A stretch of 64,000 nt of DNA from an uncultured Clostridia bacterium. Lineage in GTDB: Bacteria; Bacillota; Clostridia; Christensenellales; Pumilibacteraceae. The position numbers were made by a program, and so were the translations under genes. The stretch covers positions 17,421 through 81,420 of the forward strand of contig CAMWXP010000002.1 of NCBI GenBank assembly GCA_947178255.1. Direction: 5' to 3'. Below are positions 10,053-60,363 of the stretch, one piece after another; the stretch's first letter is position 1; every line of letters starts with the position of its first letter. Below the pieces are notes generated by a model that did no database searches, had not been told where the DNA came from, and saw nothing but the letters and a program-made list of their open reading frames with translations.

Positions 10053-10084
10053 AATTCTTAATTCTGCATTCTTAATTCTTAATT
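10053..10084. repeat. heptamer array (AATTCTT/AATTCTG/CATTCTT)
   Basis: overlaps stop of RadC-like gene. Confidence 0.8.
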
Positions 10085-11047
10085 ATCTTTTAGCACTGCG
10101 CAAAGCTGCGCGGCAAAATCGGAAAGCTCCTCGGCGGTTTCCCTGCCTGCGTACATCGACCCGTCCGACGTGACAATGTTCCACACCATATCGGGCGAAC
10201 GCAAATACTTTACCGCTGGCACAAAAATATACAGCGGGTACCAGCCTTTTTCTCGCGGCGGAGTGCCGATTGTGTAATAGCCGTAATCGCCGAAAATAAG
10301 ATAGTCGAGCATAGTCACGTTTACGTCACCGAGCATATCCGCAAGCTCGGCAACCGCTTGTGCTATATTATAGGTTTGCGGGAACATATCGGGTTCGCGC
10401 CGCGCGATAAAAACGTACTTGCAGCGGTGCTTGCACGCCGAACTCAATATATCGCGCGTAGGCACGCCGTCCGAGCAATAACATTCTATCGCCCGAACGT
10501 TAAACTCCCCGTCCATAAACGCCGCATACGTGCCCGTCGTAAGCTTGCCGAAATACGCGATACCGAAAAAGTCCGCCGCTTCCTGCCTGTTCCTAAACCT
10601 AACCGATCTTTGTCCGCTTGCCAGGCAAAGCCCGAACAGCGCCGGCAGCATTGCCGCCGCCTGCGCCGTTATGTGCGACACCTCCATAAGCTCGGACTGC
10701 GGCGCGCAAAGCACTCCCGCCACCGAGCCGTACCTGTCAATCAGCTTGTGCGAAATAACGTTGGTATCCTTTTGCGGAATAAAAAAGGACAACAGCAGTT
10801 CAACCAGCTCGATATCGCTCAACCCCGTCAAGTCGACGTCGTTCTTGGCGGAAGTGCGCAGCCGCTCCCTATGCCCCTCGTGCGCGTTTTGACTTCCGTT
10901 GCGCTCATCAAGACGACGGCGCAAATATCTTTCCAAATACGGCGCTATCGGAAGTACGTGAGGTGCGCTTTGCTCTGCGACCGCCCCAACCTCGTCCGAA
11001 CATTCTTCCGTATTCGTCTTGTTTTTCGGTTCTTTACCCCTTTCCAT
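10079..11047 (-). CDS. RadC-like protein with degenerate JAB domain
   Basis: HEGHRERLR...ELVELLLSFFIPQKDTN HhH N-terminus; HNHP replaced by RREP, LDH by LDY. Confidence 0.75.
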   Translation of the reverse strand: MERGKEPKNKTNTEECSDEVGAVAEQSAPHVLPIAPYLERYLRRRLDERNGSQNAHEGHRERLRTSAKNDVDLTGLSDIELVELLLSFFIPQKDTNVISHKLIDRYGSVAGVLCAPQSELMEVSHITAQAAAMLPALFGLCLASGQRSVRFRNRQEAADFFGIAYFGKLTTGTYAAFMDGEFNVRAIECYCSDGVPTRDILSSACKHRCKYVFIARREPDMFPQTYNIAQAVAELADMLGDVNVTMLDYLIFGDYGYYTIGTPPREKGWYPLYIFVPAVKYLRSPDMVWNIVTSDGSMYAGRETAEELSDFAAQLCAVLKDN

Positions 11048-11145
11048 AAGTTAATATGAATTTACTGATATTATATTGTTTTCCTTAAATTCAATATATA
11101 CTTTTTATTGTTGCTCGTCAAGTCCTTACAAAAAATTAACGCAAC

Positions 11146-11170
11146 AAAAAAAGGGCGCCCATTCGCCCTT
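11146..11170 (-). terminator. terminator after loaP
   Basis: AAGGGCG/CGCCCTT stem plus U-tract on minus strand. Confidence 0.65.
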
Positions 11171-11172
11171 GT

Positions 11173-11197
11173 AATTCTGCATTCTTAATTCTGAATT
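11173..11197. repeat. heptamer array
   Basis: AATTCTG CATTCTT AATTCTG AATT just past loaP stop. Confidence 0.75.
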
Positions 11198-11199
11198 TT

Positions 11200-11748
11200 C
11201 TACTTCTTTTCCACTATTTCCAGCGCAACCCTTGCCTTGGCCTTGCTGCCGAACATATCGATTTCTATATCTGCGTAGCGGTTGTGGCGGTTGATGTAGG
11301 TAATCATTCCCTCGCAGCCCATAAGCGCGCCCGCCGTAATCGTTACTTTATCGCCGTTGATAAAGCCGATTGAATGCTCCACGCACCGCTTGCCGCGCAG
11401 CAAAAATTCCAGCCGCGCACGCTCGCCGTCGGGCAATGCTATATTGTCCTTTCCGCTGGAAAGCAAGCGTATAATGTCCTGCGACGAGTACACAAACGAC
11501 CCGAACTCGGCAATAAACGTTTTGGGATCAAGACGCGTTTCCACAAATACGTAGCTCGTAAACAGCGGGCGTTTTTGGTATCGTTTTACGCCGCCCGCGC
11601 GGTAGTACGTTTCCGTTTGCGGACAAAAGGGCTCTAACACTTCCGCGGTAAAACCCTTAGTATCGGCAAACCGCGCGATATCCTGTACCACGCGGTTTTC
11701 CTTGCCTGTTCTTACGTAAAACACATACCAATAGTACGGTTCTTGCAT
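11200..11748 (-). CDS. loaP: NusG-paralog antiterminator, LoaP type
   Basis: WYVFYVRTGKE, LFTSYVFVET NGN domain; KOW GDKVTITAGALMGCEGMITYINRHNR. Confidence 0.8.
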   Translation of the reverse strand: MQEPYYWYVFYVRTGKENRVVQDIARFADTKGFTAEVLEPFCPQTETYYRAGGVKRYQKRPLFTSYVFVETRLDPKTFIAEFGSFVYSSQDIIRLLSSGKDNIALPDGERARLEFLLRGKRCVEHSIGFINGDKVTITAGALMGCEGMITYINRHNRYADIEIDMFGSKAKARVALEIVEKK

Positions 11749-13874: not shown

Positions 13875-14603
13875 ATGAAAATCAGGGTTATGGTATGTGA
13901 CGACAACGCGGAGTTTACGGCGAGCATAAAAGCGCACTTTGCCACTTCGGACAAGATAGAGCTGGTGGACGTAGCGTCCGACGGCAAGCAGGCTTTGGAC
14001 AAGCTGGTAACGGTGCGACCGGACGTACTTTTGCTCGATTTGGTCATGCCCAACCTCGACGGATTTTCGGTGCTGGAGCGCGTAAACAAGGGCAATATGA
14101 AAATAATAATCGTGTCGGCACTCAGCCAGGAAGCGTTTATTTCCAAGGCGATGGGGCTTGGCGCGGACTTTTATATGATGAAACCGATATCGTTCGGCGT
14201 GCTGGACGAGCGCATAATAGAAGCGTTCAACAACAAACGCCCGTCGGCAAAAAACCGGTCTATGGACGAAAAAATAAGCAATATCTTTATAACCGTCGGC
14301 ATTCCCGCGCACATTAAGGGGTATCAGTACCTGCGCGAGGCGATAAAGATGACGATAGACAATCCCGAAATAATCAATTCCATAACCAAAAAGCTGTACC
14401 CCGAAGTAGCCGATCACTTTAAGACCAGCCCCAGCAAGGTGGAGCGCGCCATTCGCCACGCCATAGAGGTTGCGTGGAACCGCGGAAAGATAGAAAACAT
14501 CAACACCCTGTTCGGCGTGCGCGTGTACAACCATAACGAAAAGCCGACCAACGGCGAATTCATTGCGCTAGTCGCCGACAAAATGCTGTTAGAGAGCGTT
14601 TGA
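13875..14603 (+). CDS. spo0A: sporulation master regulator Spo0A
   Basis: receiver domain (DDN, LLLDLVMP) plus GIPAHIKGYQYLR...SKVERAIRHAIEVAWNRG, KPTNGEFIA. Confidence 0.97.
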   Translation: MKIRVMVCDDNAEFTASIKAHFATSDKIELVDVASDGKQALDKLVTVRPDVLLLDLVMPNLDGFSVLERVNKGNMKIIIVSALSQEAFISKAMGLGADFYMMKPISFGVLDERIIEAFNNKRPSAKNRSMDEKISNIFITVGIPAHIKGYQYLREAIKMTIDNPEIINSITKKLYPEVADHFKTSPSKVERAIRHAIEVAWNRGKIENINTLFGVRVYNHNEKPTNGEFIALVADKMLLESV

Positions 14604-14606
14604 TTG

Positions 14607-14638
14607 AATTCGGAATTCGGAATGCGGAATTCGGAATT
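14607..14638. repeat. heptamer array (AATTCGG/AATGCGG)
   Basis: immediately after spo0A stop; inverted relative to array at 14733. Confidence 0.8.
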
Positions 14639-14664
14639 AAGGGTGGTTATTGCCGCCCTTTTTT
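14639..14664 (+). terminator. spo0A terminator
   Basis: AAGGGTGG/CCGCCCTT stem plus T-tract. Confidence 0.7.
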
Positions 14665-14732
14665 AATGCGGATTTTTGTTGCGCATAAACGCGCTTTACA
14701 ATATTTAATAAGGGCGCGAAGCGCAGTCCGAC

Positions 14733-14765
14733 AATTCCGAATTCATAATTCCGCATTCCGAATTC
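14733..14765. repeat. heptamer array (AATTCCG/AATTCAT/CATTCCG)
   Basis: abuts the -35 box at 14768. Confidence 0.8.
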
Positions 14766-14833: not shown

Positions 14834-15418
14834 ATGAAAAGACTCATTTTGGTATCGTCGCCGCCCGCGTGCGGCAAAACGTTCATATCCAAGCAGTTGG
14901 CAAAAAACCTGCGGCATGTGGTGTACCTGGACAAGGACACGCTTATTCCTCTATCCAAGCAAATATTTCGCGTGGCAAAAAAGCCGTACGACCGCAGCTC
15001 GGACTTTTTTGAAGAACAAATACGCGACTACGAATACGACGTTATACTCGACCTCGGCTTCGAGGCCTTGCAGTACGACGACACCGTGCTTATTAACGCG
15101 CCTTTCACGCGCGAAGTGCGCGACCCCGACTACATAGCGAACTTGCGAAAAAAGCTTGCCGACAATGACGCCAAGCTGACTATAATTTGGGTGGTCACCT
15201 CGCCCGAGGTTTGCCACGCGCGCATGCTGCGCCGCAACTCCGACCGCGACACTTACAAAATCAAGCATTGGGACGAATACATAAAGGGCATCGACTTTTC
15301 CGTTCCGCAAAACGTAGACGGCGGCGAAAAAGACGGACTGATGCTGTTTTACAACTCGTCCGAAGCGGAATTCGTCAAGTCCATGCACGACGTGCTGGCT
15401 GTGCTCGATCCGCAATAA
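14834..15418 (+). CDS. P-loop ATPase/kinase (AAA_33-like)
   Basis: Walker A SSPPACGKT, YLDKDTL. Confidence 0.75.
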   Translation: MKRLILVSSPPACGKTFISKQLAKNLRHVVYLDKDTLIPLSKQIFRVAKKPYDRSSDFFEEQIRDYEYDVILDLGFEALQYDDTVLINAPFTREVRDPDYIANLRKKLADNDAKLTIIWVVTSPEVCHARMLRRNSDRDTYKIKHWDEYIKGIDFSVPQNVDGGEKDGLMLFYNSSEAEFVKSMHDVLAVLDPQ

Positions 15419-23658: not shown

Positions 23659-23683
23659 TACATGTTTTGCTATTACTAAATTT

Positions 23684-23715
23684 AATTCTTAATTCTGCAT
23701 TCTTAATTCTTAATT
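23684..23715. repeat. heptamer array
   Basis: AATTCTT AATTCTG CATTCTT AATTCTT AATT next to GH36-like stop. Confidence 0.8.
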
Positions 23716-23718
23716 AAA

Positions 23719-25308
23719 TTACCAGTCCGCCACTTGCAGGATATGAAACACGCTCGTGCCCTCGCTCACGGCAATGCCGCAGTGAATAAGCGCCGCGCCG
23801 GAGAATGTTTTGTTCAGCTCTCGCACGTGGTACAGATTGTGCTCGTCCAGTCCGAAAAGCTTTATGCGTTCGCCCTTTGAAACGCACACCGTATACGCGC
23901 GCGACTTATCCTTGTTCACAACCATCGAGCACCCGCCGTTACTGTAAACGTCGCCGCGCAGTACGCACCTCGCGTCGTCCTGATACGATAATATCTGCGC
24001 GCGCACCGCGCGTTTGATTCCGTCCGACAGCTCCATTGGATTAAGCTCGTAGCCGAGCGCGCCGAGCGAAGCAACGTCAAACCGCGTTTTAAAGTTTTCG
24101 GGCGGGTCGAGATTTACTATATTGCGAATAAACCCGAGCGGATAGTACGCAGTGTACGCTTTGACGTCGTCGAGCAGCAATCCAAAATCCACGCGAATGC
24201 CGTCGAATTCGTTTTTTATCATGTTCTTTATTGCGAACATGCCGCGTGCGACGTCGCTGCTTGTCGCGTTTTTGGGCGCGTCTATCATTACGTACTTGAT
24301 ATCATAGTTAGACAAAGAATAGCGTACTGCGTGATACAGCATAGCCGTGTGCTTGTCCGAATTGTCGTATTTGTATATGCCGTCGGACGCCTTGCAGATA
24401 TTGGTACGCAACGCGCTTGTTTCTTGTATACACTCGCGGTTTATGCGCAAGCCTGCAATCAACCCGTTTTCACTGCACGCTTCGCTCAGCGTACTTATTT
24501 CGTCCCTTGTATGCCTGCCGCCGTCAAGCGCAACGATGCCGAACCCCAGCTCGCCCGCCGCCTTGACCGCCGCAACAATTTCCTTCCATTCCATTTTGGG
24601 TAAAAACAAGACGGCGGCACGCTCGGACACGTCGGAGTTATCCTCGCGCAGTATGTCGTGGAATACCCGCGACACCCCGCCCCTGCCCATATCCGAATAC
24701 ACGCAAAGTAATTCGTGGCACTCTACGTCGCCGTTAATTTCATATAACGTTACCGCGTCCGTTGTATCGCACGTAACGGTATCTCGGACGGTAATATTGC
24801 CTTCGCCGTTGGGGCACAAAAATCCGTACGCGTCGCCGCTATCGCCGCCGCAGGTCGCAAAAAATCCGTCAGGCTTACAGTCGGCGTTTTGAACGTTACA
24901 ACCTACCGATTGCCGCACAAGCGCAAGCTTTAACTCCTCGCTGCCCTCGTGCTTTATCGTAACACGCCGGTATATTCCGCCGCGCGGGTGCGGTGTGTAA
25001 TACATAGTCGCTTTCAGCTTTTCTTTTACAGCGCACAGCTCCACGACGAGCGACTTGTTGTTACCGTCGTCGTCCGTCATGATCCACGCTTCCGTAACCG
25101 TGAAATCTACGTCCTTCTTTTTGCCGCCCTCTACCGCTTGCACGCAAAGTTCTTTTACGTTGCCACCCAGTCCGAGCGCGGCAAGGTCGTCCTCCGGCTC
25201 GACGCGCTTGCCGAAGTATACGTGCATAGGCACACCGTCCGCTATTGTGAATATATAGCAAACCTCGCCCGCAGAAATATAGCAAATATCGTTATCGATT
25301 TTAATCAT
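23719..25308 (-). CDS. alpha-galactosidase (GH36)-like protein, strongly degenerate
   Basis: HVYFGKRV N-terminus, ALDGG (cf. VLDDGW), GALGYELNP, GLDEHNLY GH36C-like end; about 200 aa shorter than typical. Confidence 0.65.
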   Translation of the reverse strand: MIKIDNDICYISAGEVCYIFTIADGVPMHVYFGKRVEPEDDLAALGLGGNVKELCVQAVEGGKKKDVDFTVTEAWIMTDDDGNNKSLVVELCAVKEKLKATMYYTPHPRGGIYRRVTIKHEGSEELKLALVRQSVGCNVQNADCKPDGFFATCGGDSGDAYGFLCPNGEGNITVRDTVTCDTTDAVTLYEINGDVECHELLCVYSDMGRGGVSRVFHDILREDNSDVSERAAVLFLPKMEWKEIVAAVKAAGELGFGIVALDGGRHTRDEISTLSEACSENGLIAGLRINRECIQETSALRTNICKASDGIYKYDNSDKHTAMLYHAVRYSLSNYDIKYVMIDAPKNATSSDVARGMFAIKNMIKNEFDGIRVDFGLLLDDVKAYTAYYPLGFIRNIVNLDPPENFKTRFDVASLGALGYELNPMELSDGIKRAVRAQILSYQDDARCVLRGDVYSNGGCSMVVNKDKSRAYTVCVSKGERIKLFGLDEHNLYHVRELNKTFSGAALIHCGIAVSEGTSVFHILQVADW

Positions 25309-29044: not shown

Positions 29045-29129
29045 AAAATTATATGACCTCTATATGAGTTATAACAAACTGCAAAAAATTAATCAAGTAT
29101 TTTAAGACAGTAAAAGATTAACAATTTTT

Positions 29130-29162
29130 AATTCCGAATTCATAATTCCGAATTCTGAATTT
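29130..29162. repeat. heptamer array
   Basis: supplies last codons (QNSEL) and TGA stop of psd. Confidence 0.8.
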
Positions 29163-29997: not shown

Positions 29998-30002
29998 TCC
30001 GG

Positions 30003-37145: not shown

Positions 37146-37172
37146 CTTACTTCTTTTGAAAAAAGAAGTAAG
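37146..37172. repeat. AT-rich palindrome CTTACTTCTTT/AAAGAAGTAAG
   Basis: 11-bp perfect stem directly upstream of a -35 box. Confidence 0.5.
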
Positions 37173-37326
37173 CAAGAAAATTTTAATGTTGTGTGTTTGC
37201 TAACGCGTAATTATTGCTTTTCACCCAATTAATTATTTCTCATTATTTATTGCTGAACGCCACTCTTTCGGTATTTGCGAAATACATTTTGTCTTTTTAT
37301 ACAGCGCGATAACCTCTGCGCTTTTA

Positions 37327-37358
37327 AATTCTGCATTCTGCATTCCTAATTCTGCATT
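37327..37358. repeat. heptamer array (CATTCTG/AATTCTG)
   Basis: supplies last codons (MQN) and stop of the bsh-like gene. Confidence 0.75.
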
Positions 37359-39638: not shown

Positions 39639-39821
39639 AATTACATATTCTCCTTTTTGTATGTATTCTTATTTGTGCGGGGCGCCCCGCGATTTACAAA
39701 TATATAGTAACACATTTGCATATGCTTTTCAATACGATTTGCATACAATTTTTGCAAAATACTTGTAAAAATTACAAGAAAAAGATTCCCCGCCAAATCA
39801 GTGAGGAATCTTATCTTTTTT

Positions 39822-39853
39822 AATTCCGAATTCATAATTCCGAATTCCGAATT
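39822..39853. repeat. heptamer array
   Basis: AATTCCG AATTCAT AATTCCG AATTCCG AATT overlapping stop at 39852. Confidence 0.8.
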
Positions 39854-41356: not shown

Positions 41357-41388
41357 AATTCTTAATTGTGCATTCTTATTTCTTAATT
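41357..41388. repeat. heptamer array
   Basis: overlaps last codons (IKK) and stop of gpmI; followed by GAGGACGGC/GCCGTCCTC hairpin. Confidence 0.7.
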
Positions 41389-42896
41389 ATAATGCTCTCG
41401 CCCGTCATTTCCTCGGGTTTTTGTACGCCCATAATGTCGAGCAACGTGGGGGCTACGTCGCAAAGCGCTTTGCCCTCTTTGAGCTTGGCGCCCAAATACT
41501 TGTCGCCCGCAACGACGAGCGGAACGACGTTGGTGGTGTGCGAGGTGCAAGGCGAGCCGCCCTCGAACTTCATAACTTCGGCGTTGCCGTGGTCGGCGGT
41601 AACTATTGCAGTGCCGCCGCTCTTCCAAATCGCTTCCACTACCTTTTTCAAGCACTCGTCAACGGCTTCCACAGCTTTGACTGCGGCGTTCATGACGCCG
41701 GTATGTCCTACCATGTCGCAGTTGGCAAAGTTGAGTATAAGCACGTCCTTGCCGCTTTCCACTTGCTCCACCGCTTTGTCGGCTACTTCGTATGCGCTCA
41801 TCTCCGGTTGAAGGTCGTAGGTAGCGACCTTGGGACTTGCAACAAGCACGCGCGTTTCGTTGTCGTTGGGTTTTTCCACGCCGCCGTTAAAGAAGAAGGT
41901 AACGTGCGCGTACTTTTCGGTTTCGGCAACGCGCGCCTGCGTGTAGCCCTTAGCCGCAAGGTATTCGCCGAGCGTGTTCTTTAAGTGGCGCGGCGGGAAC
42001 GCCGTAAGTATATTTTTGAGCGTAACGTCGTACTGGGTCATGCCGACGTACGTGATAGGCTTATAGCCGCCCATGCGCTCGAAGCAATCAAACTCAGGCT
42101 CGGTTATGGCGCGGGAAATTTGGCGTGCGCGGTCGGCGCGGAAGTTGTAGAATATCATGCCGTCGCCCGCGTTCAAGCCCTTGTAGTCGCCTATAACGAC
42201 GGGCTCGACAAACTCGTCCATAGTGCCTGCGGCATAGCTGGACGCTATTGCCGAATCGGCTGTGGAAAAGTGCTTGCCCGACGCGGCGAACACCGCGTTG
42301 TAGCCGCGCGCCACGCGCTCCCAACGGTTGTCCCTATCCATATAGTAATATCTGCCGACAACGGTCGCTATCGCGCCCACGCCGACCTCTTTCAATTTTT
42401 CTTCAAGCTCGCGTATGAACGCTCTGCCCGAATCGGGCGGAACGTCGCGGCCGTCGGTAATGCAATGCACGTACACCTTTTTCACGCCGCGCGCCTTGCA
42501 CAGCTCGAGCAGTGCGTAGAGGTGTGTGTTCATGCTGTGAACGCCGCCGTTGCTCAAAAGTCCGACCAAGTGCAGCGCCGCGCCGTCCTTGGCGTTGACC
42601 GCGTCGATAACCGCATTGAACGCAGAGTTCTTGCCGAACGAGCCGTTTTTGATGGCGTCGTCGATTGTGGTGATATCCTGGTACACAACCCGACCTGCGC
42701 CGAGGTTGAGGTGACCGACCTCGCTGTTGCCCATCTGCCCTTCCGGCAAGCCAACGGCGTAACCCGACGCGTTGATATACGTGAGCGGGTACTTATTCAT
42801 GAGCATATCGATAAACGGCTTTTTAGCCTTTTTTACCGCGTTGCCGTAGTCGTCGGGGTTGTAGCCGAATCCGTCGAGAATAATAAGTGCGTTCAT
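41376..42896 (-). CDS. gpmI: 2,3-bisphosphoglycerate-independent phosphoglycerate mutase
   Basis: ILDGFG, QMGNSEVGH, NFRADRA, ETEKYAHVT, DMVGHTG, TADHGN. Confidence 0.97.
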   Translation of the reverse strand: MNALIILDGFGYNPDDYGNAVKKAKKPFIDMLMNKYPLTYINASGYAVGLPEGQMGNSEVGHLNLGAGRVVYQDITTIDDAIKNGSFGKNSAFNAVIDAVNAKDGAALHLVGLLSNGGVHSMNTHLYALLELCKARGVKKVYVHCITDGRDVPPDSGRAFIRELEEKLKEVGVGAIATVVGRYYYMDRDNRWERVARGYNAVFAASGKHFSTADSAIASSYAAGTMDEFVEPVVIGDYKGLNAGDGMIFYNFRADRARQISRAITEPEFDCFERMGGYKPITYVGMTQYDVTLKNILTAFPPRHLKNTLGEYLAAKGYTQARVAETEKYAHVTFFFNGGVEKPNDNETRVLVASPKVATYDLQPEMSAYEVADKAVEQVESGKDVLILNFANCDMVGHTGVMNAAVKAVEAVDECLKKVVEAIWKSGGTAIVTADHGNAEVMKFEGGSPCTSHTTNVVPLVVAGDKYLGAKLKEGKALCDVAPTLLDIMGVQKPEEMTGESIIIKK

Positions 42897-50740: not shown

Positions 50741-50900
50741 TGAGCTGCCGATTAAGTGACGCGAGAAAAATTGCGTCGGAAATTTTTGTGATACGAAGGA
50801 TATGCATTGTGGTCGTAGCGGCGCTACGTCCGCAATGCATAGACGCGCGTAGCGCGAAAATTTACAGCAAGTTTGCCGCACGAACTTAATCGGCAGCTCA
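50741..50900. mobile_element. 160-bp nested palindrome (MITE/REP-like), non-autonomous
   Basis: perfect 17-bp terminal inverted repeats TGAGCTGCCGATTAAGT; symmetric inner stems; overlaps dnaB stop. Confidence 0.55.
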
Positions 50901-52454
50901 ATCCAACAATCCCGCATCGGTAGGGTCAAAGTCACCGTCTCCGACACCGCCTTTCGGGTCGTCGTAGTCGTACACAGAATCGGACGGCGGGGGCGCGGAT
51001 TCCTCGAAGCCGGAGTCCCTGCCCGAATAATATGCGGGCATTTCGGGCGTACCCTTGTCGTCGGGCGAAGTAAACGTGGTGGTAGCGGCGTGCCACAGCA
51101 GCTTGACGTTGCCCGTTTCGCCGTTGCGGTGCTTTGCTATATTCAGGTACACCTCGCTTGTTGCAGGCTTTTCGCCGTTATTGTTGCCGCCGGGAACCTC
51201 CTTGCGGTCGATGAACAAAACGATATCCGCGTCTTGCTCGATAGCGCCCGAATCGCGCAGGTCGGACAGCTTGGATTCCTTGTCCGCGCCCTTGCGCTGT
51301 TCTATACTACGCGACATTTGAGAAAGCAACAGTATGGGCACGTTAAGCTCCTTTGCCGCCAGCTTTAACGCGCGCGTGATTTCCGCGATTTCGCGTACAA
51401 AGTTATCTACCTTTTTGCCGCTCTGCATTAATTGAAGGTAGTCTATCATTATAAAGTCCAGACCCTTGGAATGTTTGAGCGCGCGGCACTTGCTGAGTAT
51501 TTCCGCGGGCGTGATGTTGCCCGATTCATCTATGTAAAGATTGGTCCTTACCAGCTCGTCGCGAGCGGAATACAACCGGTCCCACTCCTGCTCGTTGACT
51601 ACGGCGCGGTTAGCGCGCGACATGTCGTAGTTACCCACCGAGCAAAGTATACGCTTGGCAAGCTGAGTCGCGCTCATTTCGAGCGAGAACACCGCAACAG
51701 AGTACGGCTTGCCCGTATCGGGCCGCCTACGCCGCGCTGCGTTTACCGCGCAGTTCATTGCAAAGCTGGTCTTGCCCTGACCGGGACGGGCTGCCAGGAT
51801 AATAAGGTCGCTGTTTTGAAAGCCGCCGCCGAGTATGCTGTCCACCTTGGAAAATCCTGTCGGCACACCGCGGTACGCAGTCGTTTCGGTGGCGCGCTGT
51901 TTAAGGTCTTCCAGCACTGTTTGTACGTAGCCTTCAAGCCGCTCGGGCTTGCCGCGCCTTGTCGATTCCGCCAGTCCGTACAGCGACGCTTCCGCGCGGG
52001 CAAGCGCACTGTCGTCGGGATCGAGGGCGTATGCCTCGTCCGCCATTTTGCGCGCAATGTCTATAATGGCACGAAGCCGCGCCGTCTTTTTTACAATATC
52101 AAAGTAATACTCGGAGTTGGCAACCGACGGCACCGCCGCTATCATCTTGGAAAGATAATCTACGCCACCTGCGCGTTCCAGCGTGCCGCTGTTTTCCAGC
52201 GCACCCACGACGGTTACAAAGTCGATAGGCTTTGCCGCGTTAAAAAGATCGGCCAGCGCCTCGTACACATGCTTGTGCGCGGGCGTGTAAAAATCGTCGG
52301 CACTGAGCTGCGGCATAAACTTGCTTGCCGTCTGCCCGTCGATGAGCATGCCGCCGATAAGCGCAATCTCCGCCTCGTAATTATTGGGCGTTTCGCGCGC
52401 CACTACGTGCGGGTGGTTCTTTATAAATTCTTCTCTATCGTCTTTTTTAGGCAT
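50898..52454 (-). CDS. dnaB: replicative DNA helicase
   Basis: AARPGQGKT, FSLEM, IDYLQLM, LSQMSR, SDLRDSGAIEQDAD, KHRNG. Confidence 0.96.
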   Translation of the reverse strand: MPKKDDREEFIKNHPHVVARETPNNYEAEIALIGGMLIDGQTASKFMPQLSADDFYTPAHKHVYEALADLFNAAKPIDFVTVVGALENSGTLERAGGVDYLSKMIAAVPSVANSEYYFDIVKKTARLRAIIDIARKMADEAYALDPDDSALARAEASLYGLAESTRRGKPERLEGYVQTVLEDLKQRATETTAYRGVPTGFSKVDSILGGGFQNSDLIILAARPGQGKTSFAMNCAVNAARRRRPDTGKPYSVAVFSLEMSATQLAKRILCSVGNYDMSRANRAVVNEQEWDRLYSARDELVRTNLYIDESGNITPAEILSKCRALKHSKGLDFIMIDYLQLMQSGKKVDNFVREIAEITRALKLAAKELNVPILLLSQMSRSIEQRKGADKESKLSDLRDSGAIEQDADIVLFIDRKEVPGGNNNGEKPATSEVYLNIAKHRNGETGNVKLLWHAATTTFTSPDDKGTPEMPAYYSGRDSGFEESAPPPSDSVYDYDDPKGGVGDGDFDPTDAGLLD

Positions 52455-52468
52455 AATATCCTCCGGAT

Positions 52469-52503
52469 AATTAAGAATTCGGAATTCGGAATTCGGAATT
52501 ATG
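52469..52503. repeat. heptamer array (AATTAAG/AATTCGG x3/AATTATG)
   Basis: between upstream stop and dnaB RBS; flanked by a GGATAATTA direct repeat. Confidence 0.8.
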
Positions 52504-52508: not shown

Positions 52509-53420
52509 TTAATTTAATTTACTTGGCAGGTTACTGTCGTAATCGCGGTACTGTTCGGGGTTGTACGGAAATCTGTCGAGCAGCGTGGGCTTTTGTTTTT
52601 TGGTGCGGGTAATAAGTATTATGAGCCCGAACACCAGCGCACCCGCCGCAATCGCGACCATGTACCAGCCGTACGGCACAGCGCCCTTGTACTTGTATTG
52701 AATATACGTGTCGGTGTCGTCGAAGTACCGCGAAAACACGTACGCCGTACCCCTATCGTCTTTTACCTTTTGCCCCGAGCTTTCCATTCGGTCCGAGCCG
52801 TACCGCACGTAATTGAGCAGCAATCCGTCGGGGTTGACGCTTTTAAGATAGGGAAACGCTTCGTCTATCGCGTGAAGGGACACCACCGTTTCGCCGTGTT
52901 CATTGCGAGCGACCGCGCCGTTTTTTATCCGTTCGAGGACTGTGGACGAGCGCAGCGGCTGAACGTTGTCGTAGTTTTCGCGCACGCCGTTGAACGGATT
53001 TGCCGACGTTGCGGTATACGTGCGTATAAACGGATTTTCCGTGTGCGTTGTGGTAAAGTCAACTTTGGTGCCGAGCGCTACAAGCTCGCCGCCGTCAGTC
53101 ACCTGCTTGCGGTAACGCACGACGTACTTTCCGTCGGTATTCGACGCGCTTACCAACGTATAGTCGTAATCGGCGAACAGTCGCGCAAAATAGCCCTGCA
53201 CGGTATACTTGTTGCCGTTTACGTCGTTAATAGCAGAGCGCTCCATGCCTTCCTTTGTTTGGTTGTCTATACTGAGCTCGTACATATGGTAACGCACGCC
53301 GTCCTCGGTATAGTCGTAGACCGAAAGGGTCGCGCTGCAGCCCGTTAGCAGCAGCGCGCAAAAGCAAACCGCGATAAGCATTATTATCCGCTTGGATTTT
53401 TTAATTCGGTCAAAAAGCAT
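52509..53420 (-). CDS. hypothetical lipoprotein with C-terminal TM anchor
   Basis: lipobox LTGC; TAATG coupling to pepF; C-terminal hydrophobic helix. Confidence 0.65.
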   Translation of the reverse strand: MLFDRIKKSKRIIMLIAVCFCALLLTGCSATLSVYDYTEDGVRYHMYELSIDNQTKEGMERSAINDVNGNKYTVQGYFARLFADYDYTLVSASNTDGKYVVRYRKQVTDGGELVALGTKVDFTTTHTENPFIRTYTATSANPFNGVRENYDNVQPLRSSTVLERIKNGAVARNEHGETVVSLHAIDEAFPYLKSVNPDGLLLNYVRYGSDRMESSGQKVKDDRGTAYVFSRYFDDTDTYIQYKYKGAVPYGWYMVAIAAGALVFGLIILITRTKKQKPTLLDRFPYNPEQYRDYDSNLPSKLN

Positions 53421-55192
53421 TAAGCGAGTTTTTCCAATTCGTCGAGCGCATCGTTGAAGAACTTGAACGCGTCGTCGTACGGCTTGGGTTGCGCCAAATC
53501 GACCTGCGTGTCGCACAGAATGTCGTACGGCGATTTATGCCCGCCAGCGCTGAGGAACTTGGTCTTGTAAATATCCACGTAACCGTCGCGCGACAAAATG
53601 TTGTGCGCAATGCTGGTTGCCGCAGTCATGCCGGTGGAATACTTGTACACGTAAAACGCCTTGTAGAAGTGCGGGATACGCGCCCACTCATAAGCGATTT
53701 TGTCGTCGGAAACAACATGCTCGCCGTAGTACTTTTTGTTAAGCTCCAAGTACATTTCGCTGAGGTTATCCACCGTGAGCGGCGTGCCCTCCAAATCCAT
53801 CTTGTGCGCGTTGTACTCGAACTCGGCAAACATAGCCTGACGGAATACCGTCGTGCGGAACCTGTTCAGTCTAAGGCTGAGCAAATATTTTTTGACGTTG
53901 TCGTCCTTTACGTTTTTGGTCAGGTAGTCGTCAAGCAGCGTTTCGTTGCAAATGGACGCGACCTCGGCTACGAAAATCCTGTAATCCCACTTGGAATACG
54001 GCTGGTTGTTTTGCGAATAGTAGGAATGCATGCAGTGTCCTAACTCATGCGCCAGCGTAAAGATATCCTCGGTAGTGGGTGCATAGTTTAAAAGCACATA
54101 CGGGTGCGCGCTGTAAGCCGACCAGCTGTACGCGCCGCCGCGCTTGCCGTCGTTGGGCATGACGTCTATCCAGCCCTCGGTCATTGCACGGTTGAGCAGC
54201 TGTACGTAGTCCTCGCCCATCGGCGCCATTGCCGCCTTGACCATATCGCATGCCTTTTCGTACGGAAGCTTCATTTCGGCGTTCTCGACAATAGGCACGT
54301 ACAAGTCATACATGTGCTGGTCTTTAAGCCCGAGTATCTTTTTGCGCAAGCCGATATAACGGTGCAACGGCGCAAGATTGCGGTTTACCGCCTCAATAAG
54401 ATTGGTGTATACCGACGTGGGCACGCCGTCGCCGAAAAGCGATTGCTCCAAGCAGTCGCCGTAGCCGCGCGCCTTGGCGTAAAAGTTGTCCGCCTTGACG
54501 TTGCCCGCATAGTTGGCGGCAAACGTGTTGATGTGCGCGATATATCCGTCGTAAAGATTGTTGAACGCCTTTTTGCGCACGGCACGGTCGGAGTCGGACA
54601 ACAGCTCGCCGTAGCTGCCGTTGTTAAGCTCTATCTTTTTGCCGTCCTTGGTGACCGGCTTGAATTTTAAATCGGCGTCGTACAGCATGTGCGCTACGTT
54701 GTAAGTGGCGTTGAGCGCCTCGCCCGCCATGGCGAGAAGCTTCTCCTCCTTGTCCGAAAGTATGTGCGCCTTTTGCCGCACTACCTCTTTAAGCATAAAG
54801 TCGAAGTCGGAAAATTCGGGGTCGGCAATGTACGCGTCCAGCACCTTTTGGTCGAGCGCGCCGAGCTCGCTGCTTATGAACGACGCCGCCGCGCCGTACT
54901 TGCCCGCCAAGCCCTCCGTGCGCGAAGCCAAGCCGACGGCACCGCCGTTGGTGGAATCCTCGTCGCGGTACATATGCGAATAGATATATATAAGCTCGAA
55001 CTTTTTGGACACCTCGGCGTCCAGCTTTAAACAGCCGAGTGCGTCGTCGCGGTTATTCAGCTTGCCCTTGTACGCCTCGATTTGCGAGAGCGCACCCTCT
55101 ACCTCGCCGTACAGCTTTTCAAAAGTCTCGACACTGTCCACCATGGCAGACAAATCCCAATGATACTTCTTTTCCACTTCGTTTCTTTTCAT
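53420..55192 (-). CDS. pepF: oligoendopeptidase F
   Basis: GKRGGAYS, HELGHCMH, VAEVAS, IPHFYKAFYVYKY. Confidence 0.95.
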   Translation of the reverse strand: MKRNEVEKKYHWDLSAMVDSVETFEKLYGEVEGALSQIEAYKGKLNNRDDALGCLKLDAEVSKKFELIYIYSHMYRDEDSTNGGAVGLASRTEGLAGKYGAAASFISSELGALDQKVLDAYIADPEFSDFDFMLKEVVRQKAHILSDKEEKLLAMAGEALNATYNVAHMLYDADLKFKPVTKDGKKIELNNGSYGELLSDSDRAVRKKAFNNLYDGYIAHINTFAANYAGNVKADNFYAKARGYGDCLEQSLFGDGVPTSVYTNLIEAVNRNLAPLHRYIGLRKKILGLKDQHMYDLYVPIVENAEMKLPYEKACDMVKAAMAPMGEDYVQLLNRAMTEGWIDVMPNDGKRGGAYSWSAYSAHPYVLLNYAPTTEDIFTLAHELGHCMHSYYSQNNQPYSKWDYRIFVAEVASICNETLLDDYLTKNVKDDNVKKYLLSLRLNRFRTTVFRQAMFAEFEYNAHKMDLEGTPLTVDNLSEMYLELNKKYYGEHVVSDDKIAYEWARIPHFYKAFYVYKYSTGMTAATSIAHNILSRDGYVDIYKTKFLSAGGHKSPYDILCDTQVDLAQPKPYDDAFKFFNDALDELEKLA

Positions 55193-55249
55193 GTTAAATA
55201 CTCCTTGTCAAAATAGTATAGCATAACGACAAGGATAAGGCAAGTATTC

Positions 55250-55281
55250 AATTAAGAATTAAGAATGCAGAATTAAGAATT
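55250..55281. repeat. heptamer array (AATTAAG/AATGCAG)
   Basis: just upstream of pepF promoter TTGCCT-N17-TATACT (55215-55243). Confidence 0.8.
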
Positions 55282-55284
55282 AAA

Positions 55285-55372
55285 AATAAGGTTGAGATTC
55301 TTCACTGCGTTCAGAATGACAAAATTAAATTTTTTTGTCATTCCGAGCAACGCGAGGAATCTCATCCTTATT
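55285..55372. repeat. REP-like inverted doublet (TGTCATTCCGAGCAACGCGAGGAATCTC type)
   Basis: long imperfect hairpin; half copy at 57390-57416. Confidence 0.7.
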
Positions 55373-56337
55373 TATTTCAACATACTAATCAGCTTCAACC
55401 GACGGAAGGGCGAAAAGTCCATGCTTATAAGCGCGTGCGAGCAAAGGGACGCGCACACCGAATAGCCCTGCTCATGCTCGAAGTAATGGCAGCCCGCGTA
55501 CTTGGGCAGCGTGTGTGCGAGCGGCGGACGAATAACGTCAAACCCCGCCGCTTCGATAGTTTTTGCTTTGTCCGTTTTGCACAACGCAAAAAACGATGCG
55601 TCGCCCTTGACGGGCGGCATAACGCAGTCGAGCGCCGAGAGCAGCGCCGAAAGATTGGCTTTGTTTCGCTCGTGAATTTTGGGCAATACCGACATGTACG
55701 CGCAAGCGAGCGCCGCCGAATAATTGTTAAGCCTGTAATCGTGGTTTTCGCCGTCGGTATATTCGTAGCGCGCAAACTGCCGCGCCGCAGTATAATCGTC
55801 GCCGCACGCCACGGCTCCGCCGCCGCCCTCCGACCCGAAGCCGATAACCGCGTAATCGCCGTCGTACCGTCCGCCGCACAATACATGTGCGCACAGCTCG
55901 ATTGTCGGCACGTTCCACGCCTTACACATGGGGATGAGCTTGTCGTAGTCGGCTACGCTGCCGAACGCGTTGTCTATAATTACCGCTTTTGGCGGCTTGT
56001 TTTGCAGGCTCGCCCAAACAAGCGCCGTTTCCAATGCAAGCGGCGAAACGCACCGCGTTTCGGGATCGCAATCCAAAAACACAGGCACCGCGCCCATGTT
56101 CGTCACGGGCGCAAGATACGAATAAAATGTGAACGTGGGTACAAAAACGTAGTCGCCGCTTTGTACGCCGCAAAGGTGCAACGCCGTATGCACCCCGCCG
56201 TCAAACGTGCTTACCGCCACGGCGCTCTTTCCCGTCGCGGCAGACAGCTCACGCTCCAACCTAGACACGTAGTCCGTGCCGCCCAGCGCGTCGTTTATCG
56301 CCGCCGCCGCTTCCCCTTGTCTGTCTATGAAAATCAT
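55372..56337 (-). CDS. DegT/DnrJ/EryC1 aminotransferase-like protein, catalytic residues apparently lost
   Basis: ALHLCGVQSGDYV, GAVPVFLDC, YRLNN; IEDAA replaced by IELCA; no SFxxxK lysine. Confidence 0.7.
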   Translation of the reverse strand: MIFIDRQGEAAAAINDALGGTDYVSRLERELSAATGKSAVAVSTFDGGVHTALHLCGVQSGDYVFVPTFTFYSYLAPVTNMGAVPVFLDCDPETRCVSPLALETALVWASLQNKPPKAVIIDNAFGSVADYDKLIPMCKAWNVPTIELCAHVLCGGRYDGDYAVIGFGSEGGGGAVACGDDYTAARQFARYEYTDGENHDYRLNNYSAALACAYMSVLPKIHERNKANLSALLSALDCVMPPVKGDASFFALCKTDKAKTIEAAGFDVIRPPLAHTLPKYAGCHYFEHEQGYSVCASLCSHALISMDFSPFRRLKLISMLK

Positions 56338-56352: not shown

Positions 56353-56384
56353 AATTATGAATTCGGAATTCGGAATTAAGAATT
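56353..56384. repeat. heptamer array
   Basis: AATTATG AATTCGG AATTCGG AATTAAG AATT in a 63-bp intergenic gap. Confidence 0.8.
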
Positions 56385-57430: not shown

Positions 57431-57462
57431 AAAAACCGCTACGCAAGTTGCGTAGCGGTTTT
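57431..57462 (-). terminator. terminator
   Basis: AAAACCGCTACGCAA-G-TTGCGTAGCGGTTTT. Confidence 0.8.
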
Positions 57463-57486
57463 GAAAGTTGATGTTGCAAAAAGTTA

Positions 57487-60216
57487 TTATGCTTGTTGCA
57501 TAGTGAACGTGTAGACCGTATCGTCCATGTCTTCTTGTTGCAATGTAACGGTGACAACGCCTTGTGCATAGTTTGCGGTTATTTCGTACTCATAGCCGTC
57601 GGCTACCGTTATGCCGGAAATCGTCACGTTGCCGTCTTGCTCGGAGTCCCACGATGCCGTAGCAATCTTTACATATGCGTTACCCCTGTATTGCCAAAGC
57701 ACACATTTGCCGTCATTATACAACCCAAGTCTTGCCAAAGAAATGGTGGGATCTACGACCCATGTTTCTTCGCTTAAAAGGTCGGCAAAGTCAGGGTCAC
57801 CGTCTTCTTCCTCGCCTGCGGGCGTAAACGTATATGCAGGCGCAAAAGCGTCGGGATCGTTAAAAAATTCAAGAACGCCTTCATTGACATATACATCGTA
57901 CTCGACTTCATTATCATCGTCCAAGAGCGCGATAAACGTATAATTATCGCCGTTCTTTTCCCACAGTCCTGCTTCGACGCCTTGATCAGTAATCCATATA
58001 AACGTTCCATCGTCATAGACGGCAAGTGTATCGCCATTCTCCGCTTCGTACTCGCCGACGATGGGATCGGCGGGAACCTCAAACGTAAGGTCGCCCATCC
58101 AATCGGAATATATAAAGCTACCGTCTACATAGATCATTTCGCCGTACTGACCTTCAAATAAATATTCGCCATCTGACTTAGTCCATGTTCCCAATTCATA
58201 ATACGACAAAGCGTCATCTTTGTCTATGATAGTAAATTCACCGAACTTCTGTATTGTAAGGACAAACTGTCCGTCTTCCGTTTCGTACTCGCCTACAATG
58301 GCATCGGGTTCGGCATAGTCCGTGTAGTAGTAGCAAGCAAACAGCCACTCAGTGCCGAGCTCAGGCGCTGCAAGCTCCAAGTACTCTTTGAGCGTATCGT
58401 CAAGCGGATATACGTCGTCGCTGTTTACATTTTTGGCGTAGTAATTTTCGGCAAGGTCGACAGGAATGGATAGATTGTTGCCTTCAATCTTGTAATCATC
58501 AAAGCCCCTAAGCGCTATGCGGAAATCCTTGTAGGTATTGCCCTTGTCGGTTGCCGCTTTATCCGCGTCGCTTGTTGTATCAAAAACGAAATACGAAGGA
58601 TGTACTTCGACTGCCTGCTCCATATAGACAAGCGGCCTATTGTTAAACTGATATCTGACGGGACTGATTGCTCCCATAAGATTTACGTAAACCACGGGGC
58701 CGGTCTCGCTGCCGAGGTGATATTTGCCGTCGGTACCCTTTACAACGGTCGCGTCCAACGCTACCGGAGCAAGTTCCTTAAAGAAATCATCATTATCTGC
58801 GGTTTTCGTAAGATTGGTGGGGTTCACAACAATCGTATTGTTGGTGTGTGTGCCTATCTTTTCGATTTTCACTTCTACCGCCGCGGGATAACTGTCAGCC
58901 TTGACCGATACCGCAAAGTAAAGATTGCCCTGCATTTCCTCGGTGTACTTGACGGTTACCTCTTTGCTGTCGGTGTAATCGGCATCATCGAATTCAGTGT
59001 ATTCCACCATAGTTTCGCTATCCACTTGTTTGATAGCGCCGTTGCCGTTAACGGTCAGCTTATAGGTGGAGCCGGCTGTGGGGTCAAGTTCTATAGTTGC
59101 ATTCTTGCCCTGCTTATTTGATTCGGCCTTGACCGTGCCCGCTCCGGTTACGGTCGTATAGGTGGCGTACGGAGTTGACAATATCGTTTCGGCGGTCACT
59201 TTTTCATCGCCGTTGTTGGTAACGTTAAGGTAGTACTTTTTACCCTTTTCCAACGTTACAGGCGGGTTAAACATGCCGTTGCCCGACAAATGGCTGTCAC
59301 CGAGCAAGAACGACTCGTTCAGCTTGCAAGTCAACTCATCAGGCTTATCGGAATAGAAATAGTAATCGCCGCTGTAATCCGCCGTATACTCGTAGTAAAC
59401 AGTGGAATTTGCCTCAACCGCGATATCCATCTTGTATGCCGCCATGCCGTCCACATACCAATAATCGCTTTCAAGCTCCGCGTCGGAAATCTTTATATCG
59501 TCGGTAAGCTTTATGACGTTGACGGGATAAATTTTTATTGTTTGTTCTACAACGGTGTCGGTAAGCTCGGTATATACGGGTACCATTGCCGTTCCGTTCG
59601 ATTGAGTATAGTTGCCGCTTGCATTTTGATGTATGGCATAAGTGCCGTCGCTCTCAAAAGCGTAGCCTGCGGGAAGACCTTTGATTTGGATGTGGTAATC
59701 GGTCTTAGTCGCGTCGTAAATTTTGACGATACCGTTTGCGTCGGGCTCCACAAGTTCGAGACAGTTGTTGCTCTCTACCGTGCAAATGCCCACCAATACG
59801 CCCGCCGCCGTGTACGCGGTGTTATCGTAATTGACAAGCTTGATCGTGTACGACGCAGGCATTTCCTCCAACGTGACCGTAAGATTGCGTCCGTCGAATT
59901 TGAGTTCGGCGCCGTCCGCTACCTTGTAGCCTCTGGGAAGGTCGTCCAATGTGACCGTATAGCCGGCGTCCTCGGCAAGAGAAAATTCCGCCTTGCCGTC
60001 GACGCCTGTTGTTACGGGCTTACCGAGTATGGTCGAGCCCTTTTTGACCGTAACCTTTACACCCTCCGCAGCGGAATCCCCCGCCTTGACTGTGACAGTG
60101 TATGTAACAGAGTTGTCCTGGGGCGTGTCGCCGCCGCAAGCCACAAACAGCCCGGCGCACACGGCAAGACAAAGCGCCAAAAGTACAAGCACTATTTTGT
60201 TACGCAGTTTTGTCAT
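57487..60216 (-). CDS. 909-aa acidic lipoprotein: Ig/prealbumin-like N-domains, unnamed central domain, C-terminal short beta repeats
   Basis: lipobox FVAC; GVKVTV..TTGVDGKAEF; repeated IVGEYE motif; GGAGG RBS. Confidence 0.75.
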   Translation of the reverse strand: MTKLRNKIVLVLLALCLAVCAGLFVACGGDTPQDNSVTYTVTVKAGDSAAEGVKVTVKKGSTILGKPVTTGVDGKAEFSLAEDAGYTVTLDDLPRGYKVADGAELKFDGRNLTVTLEEMPASYTIKLVNYDNTAYTAAGVLVGICTVESNNCLELVEPDANGIVKIYDATKTDYHIQIKGLPAGYAFESDGTYAIHQNASGNYTQSNGTAMVPVYTELTDTVVEQTIKIYPVNVIKLTDDIKISDAELESDYWYVDGMAAYKMDIAVEANSTVYYEYTADYSGDYYFYSDKPDELTCKLNESFLLGDSHLSGNGMFNPPVTLEKGKKYYLNVTNNGDEKVTAETILSTPYATYTTVTGAGTVKAESNKQGKNATIELDPTAGSTYKLTVNGNGAIKQVDSETMVEYTEFDDADYTDSKEVTVKYTEEMQGNLYFAVSVKADSYPAAVEVKIEKIGTHTNNTIVVNPTNLTKTADNDDFFKELAPVALDATVVKGTDGKYHLGSETGPVVYVNLMGAISPVRYQFNNRPLVYMEQAVEVHPSYFVFDTTSDADKAATDKGNTYKDFRIALRGFDDYKIEGNNLSIPVDLAENYYAKNVNSDDVYPLDDTLKEYLELAAPELGTEWLFACYYYTDYAEPDAIVGEYETEDGQFVLTIQKFGEFTIIDKDDALSYYELGTWTKSDGEYLFEGQYGEMIYVDGSFIYSDWMGDLTFEVPADPIVGEYEAENGDTLAVYDDGTFIWITDQGVEAGLWEKNGDNYTFIALLDDDNEVEYDVYVNEGVLEFFNDPDAFAPAYTFTPAGEEEDGDPDFADLLSEETWVVDPTISLARLGLYNDGKCVLWQYRGNAYVKIATASWDSEQDGNVTISGITVADGYEYEITANYAQGVVTVTLQQEDMDDTVYTFTMQQA

Positions 60217-60275
60217 GTTTTTGCCTCCTGAAAAAATTTTTTTACGTCCATATATTCAGACGATAATAACTTATT

Positions 60276-60318
60276 GCCCTCATCTGGTGCTACGCACCAC
60301 CTTCCCCCAAGGGAAGGT
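60276..60318. repeat. REP-like half element (family of 9938-10052)
   Basis: GCCCTCATCTGGTGCTACGCACCACCTTCCCCCAAGGGAAGG. Confidence 0.65.
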
Positions 60319-60331
60319 CGACTACGGTTTT

Positions 60332-60363
60332 AATTCCGAATTCATAATTCCGAATTCCGAATT
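60332..60363. repeat. heptamer array
   Basis: AATTCCG AATTCAT AATTCCG AATTCCG AATT 3 nt past stop. Confidence 0.8.

Follow-up and report, generated by a model that had tools for sequence, protein, structure and literature searches.

Gene-polarised AATT-core heptamer arrays in a gut Clostridia genome: anatomy, turnover and association with PF05635 genes

Short tandem arrays of seven-nucleotide units, built on an AATT core, lie at many gene borders in a 64,000-nucleotide stretch of DNA (hereafter the window) from an uncultured Clostridia bacterium. The window corresponds to positions 17421-81420 of contig C2 (CAMWXP010000002.1) of the source genome, G000 (GCA_947178255.1), a draft metagenome-assembled genome (MAG) of 1.9 Mb in 110 contigs with 48% G+C; genomes cited as G001-G046 are congeners (genus set: 31 species genomes). 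Genes were called with our own codon-bias caller, which gave 1475 genes and a coding share of 86.6%, with exact stops and approximate starts. A preliminary description had listed fourteen arrays and a variant at 375, and all 15 were recovered. Tandem Repeats Finder called period-7 repeats in the window at 10053, 11173, 14606, 14733, 23682, 29130, 37328, 39822, 52469, 55250, 56353 and 60332, with the variant at 376-419, and the arrays at 33467 and 41357 were recognised by direct reading of the sequence. Two exact 32-mers recur in the genome, type A (AATTCGGAATTCGGAATTATGAATTCGGAATT, 16 copies) and type B (AATTAAGAATTAAGAATGCAGAATTAAGAATT, 11 copies), and the features of the window are described below in these terms, the strand being the one that carries the G-ending sense of the array.

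375-419 (-): second heptamer family (GTGAATA on the minus strand), about 10 genome copies; overlaps the stop of 408-3431(-).
10053-10085 (-): type-B array; the open reading frame (ORF) 10079-11047(-) terminates within it.
11171-11198 (-): four-unit array, 1 nt past the stop of a NusG-like gene, 11200-11748(-); a terminator hairpin is directly next.
14606-14640 (+): five-core array, 2 nt past the spo0A stop (13875-14603); a terminator is directly next.
14641-14730 (no strand): interior of a convergent pair, comprising a terminator and a GGGCGCGAAGCGCAGTCC hairpin module that recurs beside arrays elsewhere.
14731-14765 (-): five-core array, its G-strand 5' end 2 nt from the TTGACA -35 box of gene 14834-15418(+); convergent partner of 14606.
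23682-23716 (-): canonical type-B array, 2 nt past the stop of 23719-25308(-); G008, the closest relative, has canonical type A here.
29128-29162 (-): array giving the last codons and stop of psd (29140-30054); relatives have a 1.5-unit seed, AATTCGGAATTAG/A, only.
33465-33485 (-): 2.5-unit array that ends the DJ-1 gene 33483-34067(-) with its first TAA.
37325-37359 (-): AATGCAG-type array containing the stop of a choloylglycine-hydrolase gene, 37346-38320(-).
39820-39854 (-): canonical type-A array; its first TAA is the stop of 39852-41231(-).
41357-41388 (-): degenerate type-B array containing the gpmI stop (gpmI 41376-42896).
52468-52502 (+): array adjoining the ribosome-binding site (tccGGAGGatattATG) of the minus-strand gene 50898-52454; the mRNA sense is the C strand.
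55249-55287 (+): type-B array running into a long palindrome at its 3' end; TTGCCT, -35-like and belonging to the minus-strand gene 53420-55192, is 5 nt away.
55288-55375 (no strand): palindromic element of about 88 nt, AAGGTTGAGATTC...GTCATTC...GAATCTCATCCTT; a separate repeat family, often 3' of arrays.
56353-56384 (+): array about 15 nt upstream of the called start of the minus-strand gene 55372-56337.
60330-60364 (-): canonical type-A array, 2 nt past the stop of 60367-63819(-), followed by a hairpin.

Genome-wide, a strand-aware search for at least three units of GAAT[TG][CAT][GAT] returned 165 arrays, compared with 1, 1 and 6 in three second-order Markov copies of the genome. A stricter scan found 104 arrays and none in any of the three copies, and Tandem Repeats Finder reported 232 period-7 rows genome-wide, the second commonest period after period 9 (250 rows). 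Scanning the window against Rfam at gathering score yielded no family for the arrays, the sole matches being a flavin mononucleotide (FMN) riboswitch and a tRNA.

The arrays are strongly polarised, and their polarity follows the gene rather than the replichore. Position statistics were compiled for the 153 arrays with two neighbouring genes. Only 11 of these fall inside a called coding sequence (CDS), although 86.6% of the genome is coding (p ~1e-108), and most of the 11 are mis-called starts or weak three-unit chance matches. Among the 142 intergenic arrays left after their removal, the 5' end of the strand whose units end in G (the G strand) is closer to a gene than the 3' end in 120, with 22 the reverse (p 1.6e-17), which bears out the earlier proposal that this strand points away from the adjacent gene. 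The gene on the G-strand 5' side is co-oriented in 96 of the 142. In more than half of these co-oriented cases, the array begins at -3 to +4 nt, counted from where the stop codon ends, and the stop is often itself the first TAA of TAATT; psd, the choloylglycine-hydrolase gene (described earlier as bsh-like) and gpmI do end inside arrays according to the gene calls. Seventy arrays begin no more than 4 nt past a co-oriented stop, against a mean of 3.8 and a maximum of 11 in 1000 permutations that placed and oriented arrays at random within the same gaps, and of the arrays no more than 10 nt from a stop codon, 75 are in sense and 4 in antisense orientation. The remaining 46 of the 142 face a divergent gene, for which the C strand is sense, and adjoin its -35 box (2-14 nt) or ribosome-binding site. 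Where two arrays share an intergenic gap, 20 pairs are convergent, none divergent and 4 tandem; the convergent pairs span 15-578 nt of spacer, and 121 of the 165 arrays have no partner in the same gap. Replication direction as the source of the polarity is ruled out by the opposite-pointing paired arrays and by the lagging-strand share: stop-adjacent arrays divide into 59 leading and 13 lagging (13/72, 18%), which is the expectation from all genes (1083:237).

In this gut lineage of the Oscillospirales type, the arrays are discrete modules, about 32 nt long, in which four 3-nt spacers separate five AAT[T/G] cores. This five-core form (32 nt; four full units plus a fifth core, 4.6 copies) accounts for 105 of the 165 arrays, and its column consensus reads T(71/105)-AAT-[T/G]-NN-G four times, followed by AATT-A(80/105)-[A/T]. 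The deviant unit is the third, which is AATTATG in 29 and AATGCAG in 27 of the 105; a core ending in G occurs at unit 3 in 39 arrays, versus 10-19 at the other positions. The preliminary description had seen arrays of 2.5-5 units composed as free mixtures. Shorter arrays do exist, such as the 2.5 units at 33465, but the free mixing does not hold given the five-core majority, nor does the statement that units are mixed rather than clonal, because the clonal 32-mers of types A and B dominate. Side-by-side arrays of two types also occur.

A common RNA hairpin as the shared feature was ruled out. Type A, an imperfect palindrome, is predicted to fold as RNA into a hairpin (-13 kcal/mol, z -5.9), whereas type B (-0.3 kcal/mol) is no palindrome and does no better than its shuffles; folding is limited to CGG-type arrays, so what the types share is the periodic core and not a structure. 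Other candidates were dropped on spacing or sequence, namely CodY, Spo0A and Fur boxes, the CsrA GGA motif, a Rho rut site on the C strand, and repeats of the CRISPR (clustered regularly interspaced short palindromic repeats) kind.

Arrays turn over rapidly at orthologous loci. The principal comparison was between G000 and G008, at ten array loci with flanks 92-98% identical. Only one of the ten, 39822, is conserved (1 mismatch), and the other nine are swapped, resized, gained or lost. Loci 23684 and 41357 carry type B in G000 and canonical type A in G008; at 41357 the swap lies between the same gene and the same terminator, both flanks being conserved. Arrays were gained, lost or resized relative to G008 at 29130, 33467, 34068-34133, 35420 and 37327, and at 33467 G008 has 3.5 units plus a 100-nt insert carrying a second, convergent array. 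Differences consist of whole units or of presence, with junctions at AATT cores. At psd, relatives have the native 1.5-unit seed as last codons and stop, to which G000 adds 21 nt. No target-site duplication was seen at the filled and empty sites compared.

The spo0A locus extends this comparison. Its stop lies in the same place in 29 of 30 loci fetched, the array position being conserved in 7-9 congeners, and an array stands 0-2 nt past it in G000, G008, G013, G011, G042, G018 and G024, with the same length and cores and differing unit content; the array is truncated in G009, degenerate in G045 and G017, and absent in the remaining loci. Two observations belong to this site: the terminator after the 14606 array is wholly different in G000 and G008 despite 97% coding identity, and the presence of spo0A before that array indicates a spore-former lineage. 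In G018, a private AGTT core yields 145 pattern matches, compared with 1-9 in four relatives, and it is found in dispersed arrays, in the orthologous spo0A-side arrays and in the arms around PF05635 genes described below. To judge from these sequence comparisons, point mutation cannot yield such patterns, and some process of copying or replacement acts on the arrays in place.

This process would not be reverse transcription, as the reverse transcriptase family PF00078 is absent from the array-rich congeners (0/13). A reverse-transcriptase or terminal-addition origin, whether like a diversity-generating retroelement (DGR) or another retroelement, was ruled out on this ground, and the idea that the arrays are scars of terminal addition found no support. 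Within the genus, PF00078 and AATT arrays are mutually exclusive, reverse transcriptase occurring only in 7 array-poor species, which probably reflects a split between two subclades.

With their AAT[T/G] core, the arrays belong to a class of intergenic heptanucleotide repeats of bacteria that has been published but still lacks an explanation. Rehm et al. 2015 reported that the Xanthomonas GGGAATC and Nostoc GGGGAYT heptamers prefer four units, and that the repeats lie near the 5' neighbouring ORF in any orientation, being sense after or overlapping a stop and antisense upstream of a start (PMC4692102). The belief that no such gene-polarised pattern had been described is thus mistaken for the class. 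The features of this class recur here, with 7-nt tandems above chance level, a non-coding bias, about four units and the 5'-ORF strand rule; like the repeats of Rehm et al., the arrays are dispersed genome-wide, depleted in CDS and not tied to known mobile elements (PMC4692102). The Xanthomonas unit, read as GAATCGG, even shares a GAAT core with them. In contrast to those repeats, the arrays combine several unit types in fixed 32-mers, occur in a gut Clostridia host and have an AT-rich core without G tracts or G-quadruplex, their units holding GG at most. Furthermore, Rehm et al. report higher genomic stability near repeats, whereas the present arrays themselves turn over very fast (PMC4692102).

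The TAACTGA direct repeats of marine Beggiatoaceae and some Cyanobacteria and Bacteroidetes, with about 170 sets per genome and 2-6 copies per set (MacGregor 2015; PMC4679880), are likewise intergenic and sporadic in their phylogenetic spread, and a binding protein is suspected for them; they are a single word placed mostly a few nucleotides upstream of starts, whereas the arrays lie mostly after stops and use a mixed vocabulary (PMC4679880). The array sequence GAATTCGGAATTCGGAATT was not found in the literature text searched. The short tandemly repeated repetitive (STRR) heptanucleotides of heterocystous cyanobacteria, attributed to Mazel et al. in 1990, are reportedly tandem, non-coding, located near gene ends and without assigned function; their words differ from those of the arrays and their lengths are variable. 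Repetitive extragenic palindromes (REPs) and the bacterial interspersed mosaic elements (BIMEs) they form, together with their REP-associated tyrosine transposases (RAYTs), comprise hundreds of extragenic copies of about 35 nt, mostly after genes, often as inverted pairs and flanking a single-copy gene. REPs are, however, palindromes with a conserved 5' tetranucleotide and no 7-nt periodicity, whereas here type A folds, type B is neither a palindrome nor better folded than shuffles, and the flanked gene is PF05635, not a known nuclease. The arrays also differ from miniature inverted-repeat transposable elements (MITEs) in that pair interiors differ, most arrays are single and no target-site duplication was seen.

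The distribution of the arrays among relatives is uneven. A four-unit GAATK pattern has between 0 and about 190 matches per genome in the 25 genomes of the genus searched, with none in 9 well-completed genomes, and a looser AATK pattern reaches about 570. Unit vocabularies under the AATK pattern are species-specific, as in G001 (AATTAGG/AGT/AGA and AATGCGT). Among 300 genomes of the order, in which AATK-type arrays alone were counted, the five-core pattern is sporadic across many families, each with its own words and often with a deviant third unit, for instance AATTCTG x2-AATTATG-AATTCTG in G242 and AATTAAT x2-AATGAAT-AATTAAT in G152. The exact type-A 32-mer was found in at least 102 stretches from at least 24 species-level MAGs, titled Acutalibacteraceae, Oscillospiraceae, Ruminococcaceae or Clostridia bacterium and originating from goat, sheep, horse, mouse and human guts. 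In those MAGs, a frame of at least 100 codons precedes 46 of 105 type-A arrays in G-strand sense versus 8 of 92 in C-strand sense (p 2e-8). The 32-mer is also present on L135 (JAKSTL010000023.1), from a horse-faeces MAG titled Treponema sp., which would be either a mis-binned Clostridia contig or a transfer.

One protein family is recurrently linked to the arrays, namely PF05635, which we take to be the four-helix-bundle family of both the DGR protein Avd and the ORF found in 23S rRNA intervening sequences. It is present in 19 of the 31 congeners, and its gene count is a poor predictor of array number within the genus. A PF05635 gene is enclosed by convergent arrays of the genome's own words in G009, G012, G010, G013, G018, G042, G001 and L122, the left arm beginning 0-3 nt past the upstream stop and the right arm ending at the next ribosome-binding site or -35 box. 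Similarly, of 20 PF05635 loci in array-rich genomes of other families, Tandem Repeats Finder detected period-7 flanks at 15, mostly inverted pairs of 29-35 nt with a separate word for each paralog; three of these arm words had 262, 761 and 308 matches in their own genomes and were absent or rare in most others. Among 301 genomes, PF05635 is carried by 12 of 18 array-rich ones versus 59 of 283 others (odds ratio 7.6, p 7e-5, with related genomes treated as independent). Upstream of the same downstream gene, read as gpsA, an arm-gene-arm arrangement occurs in three species spanning the clade (G009, G042 and G018), whereas all that G000 keeps is the arm next to the ribosome-binding site; at least one single array is therefore a remnant arm. 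Two further words are associated with other PF05635 lineages: GTGAATA, the word of the variant at 375, which in relatives forms hairpins beside one of them, and AGATAAG, a third word in the genus.

A PF05635 gene is enclosed by no array of the window and by no AATT array of G000. The sole PF05635 gene of G000, at C69:6862-7164(-), is bordered by inverted GTGATAT/ATATCAC words 17-21 nt apart, interleaved with small GC hairpins. The same layout of spaced words, as opposed to tandem heptamers, was observed with ATGAAAT words in G008, G009, G043, G021 and G046.

Of the possible explanations, we favour one to which we would give about even chances: that the arrays are the arms, and the gene-less copies, of hairpin cassettes resembling intervening sequences within the AATT-core heptamer class. 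Small hairpin cassettes, each occupying the space between two genes, would have the same 32-nt modules as their inverted outer arms. A gene-bearing cassette would encode the PF05635 four-helix-bundle protein, and most copies in G000 would be single arms or arm pairs without a gene. An arm's outer end, which is the 5' end of its G-rich strand, would always face the flanking gene, and the convergent pairing and outward-facing 5' ends would be as they are because the arrays are cassette arms. Survival would presumably be limited to copies lying precisely where a stop codon, a -35 box or a ribosome-binding site meets the remaining spacer. Turnover is fast and takes place at the DNA level through gain, loss, whole-unit resizing and replacement by another canonical 32-mer, with junctions at AATT cores. 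The arrays would be selfish or neutral modules rather than host signals. A parallel exists in the ORF-bearing 23S rRNA intervening sequences of Coxiella and Leptospira, whose S23p protein is PF05635 and which are regarded as selfish (Warrier et al. 2016; PMC4990558). In both systems a PF05635 gene lies within a long stem, the arms of which, in relatives of G000, are these heptamer arrays; unlike the rRNA elements, the cassettes lie between protein genes, and most arrays are without a gene.

Several points weigh against the cassette interpretation. The genomes richest in AATT arrays, G000 and G008, which are 94-96% complete, contain no PF05635 gene with AATT arms, and G011 has about 230 pattern matches yet no PF05635. 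No PF05635 pseudogene fragments were found beside the G000 arrays, so most single arrays are not simply what is left of cassettes that once bore a gene. Neither an enzyme nor target duplication nor movement was observed, and the idea does not itself explain why arms start 0-3 nt from a stop, what copies them or why they have five cores. The five-core length and a 32-mer common to at least 24 species-level genomes look like constraint, which fits a bound factor better than neutral junk. The enrichment test for PF05635, moreover, treats related genomes as independent and counts AATK-type arrays only.

Such a factor is central to an alternative that we consider possible though doubtful, according to which the arrays are cis-acting platforms for a pentameric, Avd-like PF05635 protein. 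One ring would occupy one five-core array, in single-stranded DNA or in RNA, each paralog would recognise a heptamer word of its own, and the complex would mark or process transcript ends at gene borders. In its favour, arrays around PF05635 genes most often have five cores (29-35 nt) even where their words are quite different, as do 105 of the 165 arrays here, and a preference for four units was also noted by Rehm et al. 2015. The words are paralog-specific and each is abundant in the same genome, the core change in G018 is concerted between arms and dispersed arrays, and at least 24 species-level genomes have the exact 32-mer in common. PF05635 resembles Avd (PMC10053308), a pentameric barrel that carries positive charge (PMC6182149), and the PF05635 protein of G012 matches PDB 2RLD, an entry with five chains, at E 1e-36. 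Against it, G000, G008 and G011 are array-rich without a PF05635 gene having matching arms, PF05635 is present in array-free congeners, and sequence-specific binding by this family was not found reported in the literature consulted; in addition, a match between arm words and dispersed words is equally expected if the gene merely sits inside a repeat element. A wider version is just as tentative. It holds that heptamer arrays and PF05635 proteins may form cognate pairs, in which a pentameric ring reads five cores, sets the universal length of four to five units in place of slippage and homogenises the dispersed arrays. If true, one explanation would cover bacterial heptanucleotide repeats, the proteins of rRNA intervening sequences and the nucleic-acid role of Avd in DGRs.

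It is unlikely, in our estimation, that the arrays are ordinary long simple sequence repeats, made and resized by slippage and cleared by selection from coding and regulatory DNA with no dedicated factor. Heptanucleotides are the commonest class of long simple sequence repeats in many prokaryotes, for which slippage was proposed, according to the summary of Mrazek 2007 given in PMC4679880. Orthologous arrays do differ by whole units (1.5, 2.5, 3.5, 4.6 and 5.5), and the psd array resembles growth from the native 1.5-unit seed. Slippage, however, predicts neither a sharp five-core peak, a position-specific third unit and recurring exact 32-mers, nor a swap of canonical 32-mers between conserved flanks; it likewise predicts no genome-wide shift of core as in G018, no strict strand polarity and no convergent pairing. 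The preliminary description had already judged simple slippage alone a poor fit, and the fixed length and the recurrence of canonical 32-mers, one of them common to at least 24 species-level MAGs, agree with that judgement.

Its own suggestion, host-serving DNA sites for a nucleoid-associated or insulator protein or else termination or decay signals in 3' untranslated regions, appears quite improbable in turn. Placement is precise, between stop and terminator and beside -35 boxes. A 7-bp spacing of AATT cores would produce narrow minor grooves at regular intervals, and heptad operators are bound by ribbon-helix-helix proteins such as omega of pSM19035. Yet 9 of the 31 congeners are without arrays and counts within the genus range from 0 to several hundred, so that no conserved housekeeping role is needed. 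Arrays at orthologous genes are freely lost or swapped, either strand occurs as mRNA sense, and there is no common RNA fold and no Rfam family. PF05635, the only protein link found to recur, is not a nucleoid protein.

Least probable, and by our reckoning very improbable, is that the arrays are terminal inverted repeats of REP- or MITE-like elements moved by a transposase (RAYT/IS200-type or other): spacers of 15-578 nt do lie between the members of convergent pairs, type A is imperfectly palindromic, some modules of array plus hairpin are found repeatedly as 60-100-nt units and the termini read T-AATT...AATT-A, but pair interiors are heterogeneous, 121 of 165 arrays have no partner in the gap, type B lacks palindromic symmetry, filled and empty sites give no sign of target duplication, and no transposase gene occurs among the genes between array pairs in G000, where PF01797 was not searched for. 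An autonomous element within the convergent pairs of G000 was also rejected, the enclosed genes being ordinary (a glycogen-branching-like enzyme, an ABC transporter, an XRE regulator and a tyrosine recombinase operon) and none of them recurring.

Heptanucleotide repeats are abundant in many bacterial phyla and have gone without explanation for 35 years, and the PF05635 family of '23S IVS proteins', named after the intervening sequences, is equally unexplained. The present lineage offers a clean system for both, with discrete five-core modules of 32 nt, strict polarity, measurable turnover, species vocabularies and PF05635 genes armed with the same words. On a practical level, ordinary genes such as psd, gpmI and the choloylglycine-hydrolase gene have their C-terminal codons and stops rewritten by the arrays, which probably break MAG assemblies and should be masked when intergenic motifs are mined.

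Several other small elements accompany the arrays. At C1:1068-1925 of G000, convergent GAAAGCGG-type arrays enclose a small gene of the XRE-type helix-turn-helix kind and a Cys-rich ORF of 81 aa in place of a PF05635 gene, from which it appears that arms can hold other cargo. A hairpin module, AATAAGGGCGCGAAGCGCAGTCCG (window 14665-14730), is fused to the 3' side of arrays as a 60-100-nt unit in G000 (C69, C6 and C4) and G008. The palindromic family (AAGGTTGAGATTC..CGCT..GAATGAC / GTCATTC..GCG..GAATCTCAACCTT), with arms of about 40 nt, occurs at 55288-55375 of the window and in the gyrB-gyrA gap of G000 (C3:33761-33906); it often stands just 3' of arrays, half copies are also found alone, and the element is distinct from the heptamers. 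The hairpin element CCTACTTCTTTTGAAAAAGAAGTAGGCAAGAAAACTTTA is present at about 37130-37180 of the window and at the L018 (G003), G008, G013 and G024 loci. Small elements of the genus seem generally to land just past a stop codon, and the CCTACTTCTTTTGAAAAAGAAGTAGGCAAGAAAACTTTA hairpin sits directly past stop codons in several congeners, array-free ones included.

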